A DNA stretch of 63,563 nt, the filler included, from an uncultured bacterium (GTDB lineage: Bacteria > CAYJOG01), in assembly GCA_964371695.1 (NCBI GenBank). It is 16 parts of 16 records of this genome, joined end to end, with 100 filler letters (N's around TTAATTAATTAA, not from the genome) between each part and the next. Parts side by side here need not be neighbours in the genome. Positions count along the whole stretch, not along the records: positions 55,849 to 59,661 come from CAYJOG010000347.1; 15 more parts are not named here. One strand, written 5' to 3'. The position numbers were made by a program, and so were the translations under genes. Below the pieces are notes generated by a model. It saw nothing but the letters and a program-made list of their open reading frames with translations. It had not been told where the DNA came from and made no database searches. Below are positions 55,849-59,761 of this stretch, in pieces. Position 1 is the first letter of the stretch. Each line of letters begins with the position of its first letter.

Positions 55849-56781
55849 GTGGTGCGCTGGCGCACGCCGGAACTGGCGGGTGTGCGTTATGACACGGGCA
55901 TCGAAACCGGCAGCGCCATCAGTGTGTTTTATGACCCCATGATCGCCAAGGTGGTGGCCCACGGGGCAAGCCGCGAAGAAGCCACCCGGCGCATGAGCCG
56001 CGCGCTGGAGAATCTCATCTGCGAGGGCCTCACCACCAACCAGGATTTTCTCATTCAGGTGCTGGGCCACGACGAATACGCCGCAGGCAACATCGACACC
56101 CATTTTGTAGACCGCCACTTTCCGCCCCAGGCCCGCCGCCGCGCCGCGCACCCCGACCGCGATTTTGTCCACGCCGCCGCCGCTGCGGTGTTTCTGCACG
56201 AGAACACCCGCACGGCCCGTGCGCTTTTGCCGGGGCTGGCGCCTGCGTTCCGCAACAACCCCTGGCGCTGTCAGGATGTTTCCTTCACCTGGGAAACAGG
56301 CGGCGAAAGCCAGACCCTGCGGGTGGAGTACGACCCCGCGCCGGGGGGCCTGTTTGCCGTGAAGGTGGCGGAGCGCGAGGCCGCCGTGCGGCTGCTGGGC
56401 CGCGAGGGCGAATGTCTGCGCCTGTCGGTGGATGGCCTGAGCCGCACCGTGAGTCTGGCCCACGATGCTGGCCGGGTTTATGTACACAGCGGCCTGGGCA
56501 ACTCCCTCTTCAAAATCGTGCCGCGTTTCCCCGAAGCCGAAGAGGTGGAAGACACCGGCAGTTGCAAGTCGCCCATGCCCGGCAAAATCCTGAGCATTCT
56601 GGTGAAGGAAGGCCAGGCCGTGAAAAAAGGCGACAGCCTGGTGGTGATGGAAGCCATGAAAATGGAGCACACCCTCACCGCCCCGGCAGACGCCACGGTG
56701 AGCGCCGTGCTGGCCCAGGAGGGCCATGTGGTGGAGGCGGGCGTGGACCTGGTGACGCTGGAAGTGGCCGAAGCTTTGTAG
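55849..56781 (+). CDS. Acyl-CoA carboxylase biotin carboxylase/biotin carrier subunit, C-terminal part
   Basis: VRYDTG..YDPMIAK, SPMPGKI and EAMKME biotinylation motif. Confidence 0.92.
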   Translation: MVRWRTPELAGVRYDTGIETGSAISVFYDPMIAKVVAHGASREEATRRMSRALENLICEGLTTNQDFLIQVLGHDEYAAGNIDTHFVDRHFPPQARRRAAHPDRDFVHAAAAAVFLHENTRTARALLPGLAPAFRNNPWRCQDVSFTWETGGESQTLRVEYDPAPGGLFAVKVAEREAAVRLLGREGECLRLSVDGLSRTVSLAHDAGRVYVHSGLGNSLFKIVPRFPEAEEVEDTGSCKSPMPGKILSILVKEGQAVKKGDSLVVMEAMKMEHTLTAPADATVSAVLAQEGHVVEAGVDLVTLEVAEAL

Positions 56782-57024
56782 CCCCGGCGGGCCGCCGGGA
56801 GCCAAAAAGACGCCACCTTTTACCCTCTCCCCGTAAAGGGGAGAGGGTGATGCGAAGCATCGGGTGAGGGGTTCAACATGGAAAAAAATCCAAACAGAAA
56901 TTTGGTTTTTTGACTTTGAACAAACCCCTCACCCGGCCTTCGGCCACCCTCTCCCCGTAAAGGGGAGAGGGTAAAAGGGTGATTTTTTTATTTGGCTGGA
57001 TTCCCGCTTTCGCGGGAATGACGG
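56778..57024. repeat. Mosaic of three palindromic repeat families
   Basis: GTAGCCCCGGCG half (contains the carboxylase TAG stop), two CCCTCTCCCCGTAAAGGG(G)AGAGGG hairpins and a dRS3-like palindrome. Confidence 0.8.
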
Positions 57025-57124
57025 CAGGCGGGCTTTTTTGCCTCGTTGGGGCACCTTTTTCTCCTTTTCTGCATTAATCCTCGTGCGAGTCAGGACGATA
57101 TACCGATGGAGGAGACCGCCACCG

Positions 57125-58168
57125 GTGAAAGTTCTGCCACGCCAACAGTTTGTCCGCTTCGCCAAAGACAGGCATATCCCCGTCGAGGCCCAGTTCGAGG
57201 TCACCAGCCAGTGCCACCTGCACTGCGTCATGTGCATCCGCACCGTGCTGGACAAGCAGCAGGAACTGAGCACCACCGAGGTGAAACAGGCCCTGCGGGA
57301 CATGCGGGACATGGGGGTTTTGCGCATCGGTTACACCGGCGGCGAAATCTTCACCCGCCCCGACATGCTGGAATTGCTGGNNNNNNNNNNTGAACTGGGC
57401 TTCAAGATTGGCCTCATCACCACCGGCACCATGCTGCGCCAGCACCACTATGACCGCCTGGGGGCGCTGCGGGGTCTGGACCGCGTGGGCATCAGTGTCT
57501 ACGCCCTGCGGCCAAAAGTTCACGCCCAGGTGACACAACACGACACCCTGCGCAAAAGTCTTAAAGCTTTGTTCACCTTCAAGGCCATGGGCATTCCCGT
57601 GCGGGTCAACGCCCCGGTCATGACCATTACCCACCGCGACGTGGTGACGCTGAAGCACTTCCTCAAAGAGCGGGGCATCCCGTTTTTTGCCGACATGTCC
57701 GTCACCGCCACCGACCAGGGCGAAAAGTTCCCCCTGCAATATCAGGTGCGGGCCGAGCACTATCCCCGCCTGCTGCCCCTGCTGCAAACCCCGGAGCCTG
57801 GCCCCACCGCCTGCCAGAGCGGCGTGGAAAGCCTGCTGGACCCCCATCCTTTTTGCGGCACGGGGCGCAACCAGTTCGCCATCAGCGCCCACGGCGACCT
57901 TTACCCGTGTAGTATTCTGCGGGTCAAATTCGGCAATCTGCGCGAAACACCCCTCAAAGAGGCCTGGACCAGCTCACCGGCGCTCAAAACGGTGCGCGAA
58001 CACAAGACCACGGAGGTTCTGAACTGCAAAAACTGTGAATATCTCAACAGTTGCCAACTGTGTCTGGGCTTGACCCACCGCCGCACCGGCGACTTCACCG
58101 CGCCTCCTTCTCCTTTTTGTGAAAAAAATCGGGTCCAAGTGGCCGAAATAGAAACAGTCAACGTATAA
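57125..58168 (+). CDS. Radical SAM enzyme with SPASM domain (copy 1)
   Basis: GTG start after GGAGGAG; CHLHCVMC, TGGE; CX12GX4C and CX2CX5CX2CX18C; 10-N gap at 57381-57390. Confidence 0.92.
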   Translation: MKVLPRQQFVRFAKDRHIPVEAQFEVTSQCHLHCVMCIRTVLDKQQELSTTEVKQALRDMRDMGVLRIGYTGGEIFTRPDMLELLXXXXELGFKIGLITTGTMLRQHHYDRLGALRGLDRVGISVYALRPKVHAQVTQHDTLRKSLKALFTFKAMGIPVRVNAPVMTITHRDVVTLKHFLKERGIPFFADMSVTATDQGEKFPLQYQVRAEHYPRLLPLLQTPEPGPTACQSGVESLLDPHPFCGTGRNQFAISAHGDLYPCSILRVKFGNLRETPLKEAWTSSPALKTVREHKTTEVLNCKNCEYLNSCQLCLGLTHRRTGDFTAPPSPFCEKNRVQVAEIETVNV

Positions 58169-58170
58169 CC

Positions 58171-58617
58171 ATGCCTGCCGCCACCACCCATCCCGTGCTT
58201 TGCCCCCCCACCCTGGCGGACAGGCTGCAAGTGGTGTGCCTGAAGGCCACCATGGTGGTGCTGCAGGGGGTTTTGCCCCTCAAGGCCATTTTGTGGCTGC
58301 TGGACAGAGTGCCCCAAAAACGTGAAAAAACCGTGAATTTTCGTGTGCTGGCCCGCAAGGTGAGTTATGTTCAGGGCCTGAAAGACACCCGCCATTACAA
58401 CCGTCTGGTGCGTCTGAACTGCCTCAAGCGCAGCCTCATCACCCTTTATCTGCTGCGCCGCCACGGCGTGCCCGCCCGGTTTCACCTGGGGGTGAACCCC
58501 CGCAAGGCCAAGTTCGCCCACGCCTGGATCGAACGCCCCGTCACGGAGCTGACGCCCCTGTTGGCCCGCTCACAGCGCATTGGCTCGATTTATGCGACCC
58601 TGATGGTCCACGGTTAA
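58171..58617 (+). CDS. Lasso-peptide B2-type leader peptidase (transglutaminase-like, Transglut_core3)
   Basis: NCLKRSL..LLRRHG.P..FHLGV..FAHAWIE signature; 148 aa; no RRE domain. Confidence 0.85.
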   Translation: MPAATTHPVLCPPTLADRLQVVCLKATMVVLQGVLPLKAILWLLDRVPQKREKTVNFRVLARKVSYVQGLKDTRHYNRLVRLNCLKRSLITLYLLRRHGVPARFHLGVNPRKAKFAHAWIERPVTELTPLLARSQRIGSIYATLMVHG

Positions 58618-58621
58618 GGCC

Positions 58622-59656
58622 ATGAAAATCATCGGCGCCGAAAACCTGCCGTCGTTCCTCAAGAGCCGCCGTGTGCCTTCCACCGCCCAGCTTGAGCTGA
58701 CCAGCCAGTGCCACCTCACCTGCCCCCACTGCAAATCGGTGGTACACGACAAACACGAGGAACTCGACACGGAACAATGGATCAACCTGTTTGGCCAGTT
58801 GCGCCAACTGGGCACCACGGCGCTCACCCTCACGGGGGGGGAAATCTTTCTGCGCCCCGACCTGCTGGACCTGTGCGACGCCGCCGACGGCATGGGCTTC
58901 AAGCTCACCCTGTTCAGCACCGCCACGCTCATGAATCCCCAGCGGGTGGAACGCCTGAAGCGCCTGAAAAACCTGCGGCGGTTTGCGGTGAGTTTTTATG
59001 CCCTGCGCCCCCACGCCCATCAGGCCGTCACCCAGGCGGACACCTTCAAGAAGTCCCTCAGCAACTTGCTGTGGATGCGCCGCGAGGGCCTGCCCGCCGA
59101 AGCCCAGACCATTCTGCTGAACCCGACCTGGCGCGACATCATGGTGCTCAAGTCGTTTTTCACCGAGCGGGACATCCCCTTTCGTCAAAGTCTGGTGGTG
59201 TATCCCCGCGACGACGGCAACCTGGCCACCCGCGACATGGCGGCCCCCACCAGCGTCATCGCCCACCTCTCGCGCAGCCTCAAACCCTGGCAGGAACAGG
59301 CCTTTGACTGCGGCGGAACCGACCCGGACGGCCCCATCTGCTCGGTGGGCCGCACGGTGGTGGCCATCACGGCGCGGGGTGAGTATCTGCCCTGCCCCTC
59401 GTTCCGCCACCCTTTTGGTGACATTTTTGAAGGGGATTTGCCAACCCTGTGGAAGAATGGAACAGAGATGCAGCGCATTTTGGGATTGAGAAAAAACCAG
59501 ACCGTGTGCCACACCTGCAACGAAAGCAGCGCCTGTTTTCATTGTCCGGGTCTGGCGCTGGCCGAGGCGGGCAACCAACTGGACGCGATCACCTATCCCA
59601 AAGCCGCCTGCGAAGTCACCTATGCCAGAAAGAGAGGAGCGACCATTGGCCGGTAA
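58622..59656 (+). CDS. Radical SAM enzyme with SPASM domain (copy 2)
   Basis: CHLTCPHC, TGGE; CX12GX4C and CX2CX5CX2CX21C. Confidence 0.92.
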   Translation: MKIIGAENLPSFLKSRRVPSTAQLELTSQCHLTCPHCKSVVHDKHEELDTEQWINLFGQLRQLGTTALTLTGGEIFLRPDLLDLCDAADGMGFKLTLFSTATLMNPQRVERLKRLKNLRRFAVSFYALRPHAHQAVTQADTFKKSLSNLLWMRREGLPAEAQTILLNPTWRDIMVLKSFFTERDIPFRQSLVVYPRDDGNLATRDMAAPTSVIAHLSRSLKPWQEQAFDCGGTDPDGPICSVGRTVVAITARGEYLPCPSFRHPFGDIFEGDLPTLWKNGTEMQRILGLRKNQTVCHTCNESSACFHCPGLALAEAGNQLDAITYPKAACEVTYARKRGATIGR

Positions 59657-59761
59657 AAAACNNNNNNNNNNNNNNNNNNNNNNNNNNNNNNNNNNNNNNN
59701 NNNNNTTAATTAATTAANNNNNNNNNNNNNNNNNNNNNNNNNNNNNNNNNNNNNNNNNNNN

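Follow-up and report, generated by a model that had tools for sequence, protein, structure and literature searches.

Three tightly packed genes lie on the plus strand at positions 57125-59656 of the window, the whole stretch of 63,563 nucleotides (filler included) that was analyzed. The first, rSAM1, encodes a 347-aa radical SAM/SPASM protein (57125-58168; GTG start, TAA stop), the second a 148-aa lasso-B2-type, transglutaminase-like cysteine peptidase, hereafter B2 (58171-58617; ATG start, TAA stop), and the third, rSAM2, a 344-aa radical SAM/SPASM protein (58622-59656; ATG start, TAA stop). They are carried by contig C347 of the source genome, a 3,813-b contig that occupies window positions 55849-59661; this metagenome-assembled genome (MAG) is 83% complete and consists of 672 contigs broken at repeats. 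Checked against the sequence, the coordinates agreed with an earlier note on this DNA, which had described three co-directional genes spaced by 2 nt (rSAM1/B2) and 4 nt (B2/rSAM2) and a contig that ends 5 nt past the stop of the second rSAM gene. Gaps of this size are compatible with translational coupling. Beyond the contig end, the window continues with the N/TTAATTAATTAA linker and then a different contig. The rSAM1 start is preceded by GGAGGAG 10 nt upstream of the GTG at 57125, and the N-termini of rSAM1 and rSAM2 align residue 1 to residue 1. Ten N at 57381-57390 mask 4 residues of rSAM1.

Upstream of rSAM1, the 343-nt intergenic stretch 56782-57124 follows the stop of a biotin-carboxylase/BCCP-type gene and holds dispersed REP-like palindromic repeats, in line with the earlier description of this side as repeats only. 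Genome-wide, two 25-mers from the stretch have 48 and 114 copies, of which 17 and 51 lie no more than 300 b from the end of a contig. A six-frame read of 56782-57124 gave no credible small ORF or peptide candidate, and a promoter/terminator scan found sites no more frequently than in shuffled sequences and no promoter-like site in this stretch. When a join of C347 was sought through its end k-mers, the sole match was a chance 15-mer inside an ABC-transporter gene.

That both flanking proteins are full radical SAM/SPASM enzymes, as had been proposed from the sequence, was supported by Pfam matches to PF04055 and PF13186 in rSAM1 (73.5 bits, 3e-20; 46.3 bits, 5.4e-12) and in rSAM2 (59.1 bits, 7.9e-16; 32.0 bits, 1.6e-07). 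Each protein also contains the CxxxCxxC motif, the GGE motif and seven C-terminal SPASM cysteines, and thereby shows the general features of radical SAM/SPASM peptide maturases. Since the radical SAM domain match starts at about residue 25 in both, neither carries a fused N-terminal RRE. The two enzymes are 33% identical, and in a tree of 162 rows rSAM1 was sister to rSAM2 and its orthologs in one clade with support of 100; the pair is thus a lineage-specific duplication. Homologs of rSAM2 were found at 95, 57, 58, and 58% identity, after which identity fell to 30% or less, and the cysteine motifs were invariant among them. SkfB (E 6e-10) and PqqE (E 1e-8) were the only solved chains matched by rSAM2. 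All NCBIfam matches of both enzymes were far under the model cut-offs, including AhbD (106.5 versus 500), NirJ2 (100.9 versus 500), AhbC (78.6 versus 650), NirJ (76.5 versus 515), PqqE (91.6 and 86.7 bits for the two rSAMs versus 381), and MftC (83.6 and 45.5 versus 265). The earlier note had raised clustering with cofactor enzymes such as AhbC/AhbD, NirJ or PqqE as counter-evidence; by these equivalog scores, rSAM1 and rSAM2 do not qualify as members of the heme, heme d1, PQQ, or mycofactocin families.

The middle gene was likewise confirmed as encoding a lasso-B2-type peptidase, scoring above the curated cut-off of both Pfam PF13471 (42.8 bits, cut-off 26) and NCBIfam NF033537 lasso_biosyn_B2 (42.9 bits, cut-off 33). 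Its clade is very rare, with three homologs among 5.8 billion proteins at 53-66% identity. An alignment search of the genome contigs and metagenome contigs returned no related loci, one weak match was found in 60 related genomes, all of which share the domain level only (the phylum-level set is the source genome alone), and the B2 profile had no match among PDB sequences. A second PF13471-like match in the genome, on contig C30, was an ordinary PF01841 transglutaminase-domain protein. All four clade members and 89 of 89 B2 relatives outside the clade have C84, G107, H117, and W119. In the column of the third triad residue, where 70 of these 89 relatives have D or E, the clade members carry A, Q, R, and A, and three of the four also lack the Glu of the HAWVE motif. 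The clade is remote from ordinary lasso B2 proteins, with E < 1e-10 in only 1 of 91 matches. Because the homologs of B2 (53-66%) and rSAM2 (57-58%) keep their catalytic residues, we regard the three genes as real.

The earlier note had considered a PqqD/RRE protein unseen rather than proven absent, and the genome indeed contains exactly one PqqD gene, located on contig C86, away from C347. Its best NCBIfam match was the lasso B1 model lasso_PqqD_Strm (50.9 bits, under the cut-off of 70), followed by 37.8 bits against a second lasso B1 model (cut-off 80) and 14.5 bits against the PQQ-pathway PqqD model (cut-off 46). Only three homologs were found among 5.8 billion proteins, and in both of the two homologous contigs longer than 6 kb they share the contig with B2 and rSAM2 homologs, co-residence here meaning contigs of identical size and source (6,209 b, NCBI; 8,124 b, Logan). 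The genome also has one HprK-like kinase, on contig C566, and one NTP_transf_5 gene, on contig C7 (PF14907, 59 bits); a local HMM search of the genome gave no match to an S24/SpI-like peptidase. PqqD, the B2/rSAM genes, the kinase, and the nucleotidyltransferase (NTase) thus lie on four different contigs, and differ also in the longest contig that holds each of them in better assemblies of near-identical strains (64,555, 71,846, 24,585, and 63,291 b, respectively), so that their linkage is unproven in the source species.

Neither C347 nor regex motif scans of the genome, which gave noise, yielded a precursor peptide; the same holds for a lasso-type precursor with a YxxP leader, Thr at -2 and an Asp/Glu acceptor, the flanks of C347 being missing. 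A 37-codon ORF on contig C147 resembles related leaders and is a candidate without support. Beside PqqD, and predicted to be co-transcribed with it, is a gene for a 265-aa secreted protein that matched no Pfam or NCBIfam family and had no usable ESM Atlas match; its AlphaFold model was too low in confidence to use (pLDDT 36.7). It is not the HprK-like kinase that lies upstream of PqqD in related loci, as it is without a P-loop and BLASTP against six kinase-like proteins reached at best E 0.001.

A secreted PqqD neighbor without a known family and a precursor that was not found, together with a third catalytic acid that none of the four clade members has and a HAWVE Glu that only one of them retains, would fit a B2-like protein that is a degenerate transglutaminase-fold scaffold or adaptor for the rSAMs, or enzymes that target a protein instead of a RiPP precursor. 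However, neither the clade nor the wider family shows any variation at Cys84, His117, Gly107, or Trp119, for which reason catalysis is presumably retained, and a Cys-His dyad suffices in many papain-like folds; we judge the scaffold or protein-target explanation improbable. A decaying or orphan cassette remnant, scattered by repeat-mediated rearrangement and now making no product, would account for parts spread over four contigs and for the flanking REP-like repeats, but none of the three ORFs is disrupted and no motif is missing, homologs at about 55-65% identity keep the catalytic residues, and near-identical copies occur across several assemblies (B2 on 11 contigs, PqqD on 12). This explanation appears very improbable.

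To the co-occurrence scoring suggested in the earlier note, we brought the 160 loci in which the nearest rSAM relatives occur; because the relatives are only 23-32% identical, they give weak grounds for transferring function. Most of the relatives reside within peptide cassettes with PqqD and an HprK-like kinase: PqqD was found within 4 kb in 104 of the 160 loci, an HprK-like kinase in 80, an S24-like peptidase in 47, and NTP_transf_5 in 40. B2 was a neighbor in three loci, in each of them directly upstream of the rSAM gene. About 30 of the 160 contain small ORFs that combine a leader of the KKYxKPx[LVI] type with a Cys-bearing tail. Two unrelated loci, L104 and L108, share the order PqqD, B2, rSAM/SPASM, 51-aa peptide, HprK-like kinase, and neither has an AsnB-sized ORF within 10 kb.

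The combination of rSAM, PqqD, and peptidase also fits the architecture of PQQ and mycofactocin pathways, in which case the locus would belong to a peptide-derived redox cofactor pathway and not to a secreted natural product. PqqE and MftC are among the NCBIfam matches, the stronger MftC match being a single stretch that spans the whole length, of the only two solved chains with a match, one is PqqE, and no transporter was seen on C347. Yet the PqqE, MftC, and PQQ-type PqqD scores are all far under their cut-offs, the family is patchily distributed and very rare, as would not be expected of a housekeeping cofactor, and hypervariable Cys-bearing peptides adjoin the nearest rSAM relatives. We consider a cofactor pathway quite unlikely.

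In the genome, which is 83% complete, we found no lasso cyclase. The AsnB-like (PF00733) genes of the genome number five, four full-length and a fifth truncated, and for all five the glutamine-hydrolysing Asn synthase model was the best or second-best match, with the four full-length genes above its cut-off. Against the lasso-cyclase model NF033535 the five scored 27-267 bits (cut-off 525), and against NF033561 (cut-off 300) four of them scored 58-73 bits while the truncated fifth had no match. A cyclase could sit in the 17% of the genome that is not assembled, or on homologous contigs. A true lasso cluster with rSAM tailoring, its cyclase and precursor lying past the contig end or unassembled, would be consistent with a B2 that passes the curated lasso model, a PqqD for which a lasso B1 model scored highest, a contig that stops so soon after rSAM2 in an incomplete genome broken at repeats, and the presence of an HprK-like kinase and NTP_transf_5, which are described as paeninodin-type lasso accessory genes in PMC13381572. 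The AsnB homologs, which fit the Asn synthase model, the distance of the B2 clade from ordinary lasso B2, and the lack of a cyclase-sized gene within 10 kb in L104 and L108 argue against a lasso cluster, and we regard it as unlikely.

The reading we favor, with somewhat better than even confidence, is that the locus is part of a cyclase-free, RRE-dependent RiPP maturation module that uses lasso-type leader removal. The earlier proposal of a non-lasso RiPP is strengthened by the B1-like RRE, by the genome in which no cyclase was detected, by rSAM scores far under the cofactor-family cut-offs, and by the gene content of L104 and L108, and it is held back by the precursor, which was not found. 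In the proposed scheme, the small B1-like PqqD would bind a leader-bearing precursor and present it to the two paralogous radical SAM/SPASM enzymes, neither of which has its own RRE. Each enzyme would then make a radical-mediated modification of the core, and thioether or carbon-carbon cross-links seem likeliest because Cys-bearing cores adjoin related enzymes. Leader removal would then fall to the B2-type cysteine peptidase, probably dependent on PqqD, in the same way as in lasso pathways. As the scheme includes no ATP-dependent lasso cyclase, it would yield a peptide cross-linked by radical SAM chemistry and not a lasso. More tentatively, and at slightly less than even confidence, we propose that a portable pair of lasso B1 RRE and B2 was recruited to a duplicated rSAM/SPASM pair, giving an undescribed class of cross-linked non-lasso peptides in which B2 catalysis would rely on a Cys-His dyad and no third acid.

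If the recruitment of B1 and B2 is correct, a leader recognition and cleavage module of lasso pathways also serves other RiPP chemistries, which would be notable because C96 (B2-type) peptidases count as a lasso hallmark, being regarded as lasso-peptide-specific in a 2023 review (PMC10885120). Mining rules that demand a cyclase beside B1/B2 would then need revision, and the engineering of radical-SAM-modified peptides would gain in B1/B2 a pair for leader removal. The truncated contig, the precursor that was not found and the very small size of the family set limits to this case. The rSAM1/rSAM2 paralogs could serve as a model for the division of labor between duplicated maturases.

Several known systems share parts of this arrangement. 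First, the lasso split B1/B2 system has in common with it a B2 above the curated cut-off with catalytic Cys and His and a discrete PqqD that scores best against a lasso B1 model; it differs in that here two rSAM/SPASM genes flank B2, no cyclase was found, the B2 clade is without the third acidic residue, PqqD is under the lasso cut-offs, and no lasso-type precursor was seen. Second, the SynChlorMet cassette, represented in part by the NCBIfam/TIGRFAM models ScmC, ScmD, and ScmE, comprises two rSAM/SPASM enzymes, PqqD, and an HprK-like protein. To our knowledge it has no B2 peptidase and is uncharacterized, and our literature search found no paper on it. Both systems pair two PqqE-like rSAM/SPASM enzymes with a PqqD-family protein, ScmE was among the better matches of rSAM1, and ScmC was matched by the kinase of a related locus. 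However, this comparison with known two-rSAM cassettes, which the earlier note had called for, sets the locus apart from SynChlorMet, with ScmE at 90.4 and 58.7 bits versus 400, ScmD at 24 versus 100, and no ScmC match for the kinase of the genome. Third, the single HprK-like kinase and single NTP_transf_5 gene recall LPP-type (linear polyphosphorylated peptide) and paeninodin-type accessory genes, but in this genome PqqD has neither the kinase nor the NTase on its own contig, and the peptidase is B2-type instead of SpI-type, so the genes do not form an LPP-type kinase/RRE/NTase/SpI cluster; radical SAM, rSAM, and SPASM go unmentioned in the main text of Popov et al. 2026 (PMC13381572). Lastly, the RRE-dependent rSAM/SPASM maturases SkfB/AlbA of sactipeptides, those of ranthipeptides, PqqE, and MftC share the rSAM core and full SPASM domain and differ by mostly having a fused RRE or other leader peptidases. 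About 300 lasso-type discrete RREs co-occur with rSAM enzymes according to the RRE-Finder paper (PMC7470986). None of these maturases paired with a B2-type peptidase was described in the literature searched.

The stretch is a chain of contigs from a metagenome-assembled genome (MAG), joined by N/TTAATTAATTAA linkers, and all three genes lie on one 3,813-b contig (window 55849-59661). This contig carries the 3' portion of a gene for a biotin-dependent carboxylase (stop at 56781; Pfam Biotin_carb_C, BT_MCC_alpha and Biotin_lipoyl), a 343-nt REP-like repeat stretch (56782-57124) in which no credible small ORF upstream of rSAM1 was found, the radical SAM/SPASM gene rSAM1 (57125-58168, ten interior bases read as N), the lasso-B2-type peptidase gene B2 (58171-58617) and a second radical SAM/SPASM gene, rSAM2 (58622-59656), and ends 5 bases further on. 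The earlier note's domain calls were all upheld by Pfam and NCBIfam searches; CxxxCxxC, GGE and seven SPASM cysteines are present in each rSAM, and re-measurement returned the claimed intergenic gaps of 2 and 4 nt, confirming the observation as a whole. The genome comprises 3.4 Mb in 672 contigs. Two 25-mers of the upstream stretch, which contains two REP-like palindromic families, have 48 and 114 genome copies, with 17 of the 48 and 51 of the 114 (about 35-45%) lying ≤300 b from a contig end. Because many copies sit near contig ends, the assembly breaks at these repeats, which probably explain its 672-contig state, and the abrupt end past rSAM2 thus reflects the limits of the assembly and is no biological boundary.

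Over their full length from residue 1, the two rSAMs share 33% identity, and a FastTree tree of 162 rows places them with three rSAM2 orthologs in one clade (support 100); by sequence, they are a lineage-specific duplicate pair. Homologs of rSAM2 show 95, 57, 58 and 58% identity, the next ones at most 30%. One alternative is a cofactor pathway of the PQQ/mycofactocin kind, and PqqE is, with SkfB, one of the only two solved chains matching the rSAMs, both weakly. Against this, all curated NCBIfam rSAM families score far below their cut-offs (best bits versus cut-off: AhbD, 106.5 and 500; NirJ2, 100.9 and 500; PqqE, 91.6 and 381; ScmE, 90.4 and 400; MftC, 83.6 and 265), and the clustering with cofactor rSAMs (AhbC/AhbD, NirJ or PqqE) that the earlier note named as speaking against its proposal was not seen.

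An alignment search with the rSAMs gave 80 + 80 loci (23-32% identity), and local HMMs, made from proteins that Pfam had identified beforehand, were run on their neighbours. At most 4 kb from the rSAM, PqqD, a small RRE-type protein, was found in 104 of the 160 loci, an HprK-like P-loop kinase in 80, an S24/SpI-like peptidase in 47, NTP_transf_5 in 40 and B2 in 3, while 34, many of them short contigs, had no such neighbour; about 30 of the 160 contain small ORFs in which a KKYxKPx[LVI]-type leader precedes a Cys-bearing tail. By these comparisons, the rSAMs are closest to peptide maturases that depend on an RRE rather than to cofactor enzymes. We also observed among these loci (L020-L179; e.g. 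L101, L105, L110, L030, L020, L035) a large set of cassettes of kinase, PqqD and rSAM/SPASM, with the HprK-like kinase first, S24/SpI-like peptidase and NTP_transf_5 optional, and Cys-bearing small ORFs with KKYxKPx[LVI] leaders. No close relative was retrieved as DNA from genome and metagenome contigs, and a same-phylum genome search found only this genome, the 60 "relatives" returned sharing the domain level only.

A true lasso cluster with tailoring, its cyclase in an unassembled part, is a second alternative. The genome is 83% complete; none of its five Asn-synthase-like genes comes near the cut-off for a lasso cyclase, and the four that are full-length score above the cut-off of the model for glutamine-hydrolysing Asn synthase. 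Two related loci, L104 and L108, share the order PqqD, B2, rSAM/SPASM, conserved 51-aa peptide, HprK-like kinase and Wzy_C/TPR membrane protein. The 51-aa ORF (L104 10980-11135, +; L108 11031-11186, +), directly 3' of the rSAM gene, is conserved between two unrelated MAGs, has a lasso-like leader and a tail with two Cys, and is the probable precursor of this PqqD-B2-rSAM-kinase cassette. Since the 10 kb on each side at L104 and L108 contain no ORF of Asn-synthase size, B2-type peptidases occur in cyclase-free rSAM cassettes elsewhere, in keeping with the non-lasso pathway that the earlier note proposed.

B2 itself has only three homologs, with 66, 62 and 53% identity, in a set of 5.8 billion clustered proteins and, against 1.84 billion representatives, 91 matches at E up to 0.001, one alone below 1e-10; judged from these searches, its clade is very rare and divergent. 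Another alternative, a B2 without catalysis, would fit the Asp/Glu column (D/E in 70/89 relatives), which reads A, Q, R, A in the clade, and the HAWVE Glu, retained within the clade in this genome's B2 only. Cys84, Gly107, His117 and Trp119 are invariant across the clade and in 89/89 other relatives, consistent with a working peptidase.

The genome's one PqqD (C86 7617-7904, minus strand; 96 aa, ~1 kb from the contig end) has as its best NCBIfam matches two models of B1, the lasso leader-binding chaperone (50.9 and 37.8 bits, both below cut-offs). Three homologs exist in the 5.8-billion-protein collection, one (65%) on a 6,209-b NCBI contig and one (62%) on an 8,124-b Logan contig; these sizes and sources are also those of the contigs of B2 homologs P0002 and P0004 and of rSAM2 homologs P0008 and P0006. 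Our reading is that PqqD, B2 and rSAM2 reside together on 2/2 homologous contigs >6 kb, matched by size and source, not DNA. A further alternative is a scattered remnant of a cassette. In assemblies of near-identical strains, the longest contig is 71,846 b for B2 and rSAM2, 64,555 b for PqqD and an adjacent 265-aa protein, 24,585 b for the HprK-like kinase and 63,291 b for NTP_transf_5. These differences count against tight linkage in the species; either all these assemblies are interrupted at the same repeats, or the genes are scattered.

Several other features were recorded. The 265-aa protein upstream of PqqD (C86 7911-8705, -; locus L003 1783-2577; stop 3 nt before the PqqD start) is of secreted type, its N-terminus resembling a signal peptide, and lacks Cys; it matched no Pfam or NCBIfam family and nothing in the ESM Atlas, and its fold model was unusable. 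A convergent dapB-like gene 3' of PqqD (L003 558-1373, +) lies in two frames (558-1028 and 1116-1373), which suggests a frameshift or assembly error. The single HprK-like P-loop kinase (C566:189-1061, +; 290 aa, locus L180; HprK_rel_A 22 bits, cut-off 200; local kinase HMM E 1.7e-7), of the type that usually neighbours PqqD in related cassettes, is flanked by REP-like repeats and murA, not beside the operon. The only PF14907 NTase gene (NTP_transf_5; C7:3065-4042, +; 59 bits, locus L181) directly precedes one for a 663-aa multi-pass membrane protein without Pfam match (C7:4046-6037, +), and both genes come after coaX and a stretch of REP-like sequence, at a site apart from the rSAM operon. Lastly, a 37-codon ORF (C147:1397-1510, -; locus L183; TTG start, purine-rich stretch 5') lies antisense in an intergenic gap and has two Cys and a KYxKPx[LVI]-like N-terminal motif, its sole support, which could be a chance resemblance.

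Given the observed gene content, the paralogy of the rSAMs, the conserved residues and the shared contigs in relatives, we favour, with modest confidence, a cyclase-free RiPP module in which rSAM1-B2-rSAM2 act with a B1-like PqqD. We infer its substrate, chemistry, step order and B1-B2 dependence as follows: PqqD would bind the precursor leader and pass the peptide to the paralogous rSAM1 and rSAM2, both lacking their own RRE; this pair would cross-link or otherwise modify the core, and B2 would remove the leader. The earlier note's interpretation thus stands in part: a cyclase-free, RRE-dependent rSAM RiPP is favoured, and no precursor was found on the contig, which stops just past rSAM2. Points of note are the duplicated maturase pair, the rare divergent B2 clade and a genome alone of its phylum in the genome search.

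The closest curated concept to rSAM1-B2-rSAM2 is the SynChlorMet cassette, none of whose models was matched above cut-off in this genome. That cassette comprises two rSAM/SPASM enzymes, PqqD and an HprK-like protein. Literature searches for a B2-with-rSAM pathway (PF13471 with radical SAM; SPASM/lasso/HprK/RRE/nucleotidyltransferase; SynChlorMet) found no description. In the parts consulted, C96 transglutaminase-like peptidases appear in a 2023 review under lasso peptides only (PMC10885120), and RRE-Finder regards about 300 lasso-type discrete RREs co-occurring with rSAM as lasso false positives (PMC7470986). Clusters for linear polyphosphorylated peptides (LPP) consist of RRE, kinase, NTase and SpI, the terms radical SAM, rSAM and SPASM being absent from the main text (PMC13381572), and the L020-L179 cassettes look like their rSAM-containing counterpart. 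The use of a lasso-type B2 in an RRE-dependent rSAM RiPP pathway, a kind of pathway already known, is the partly supported novelty here.
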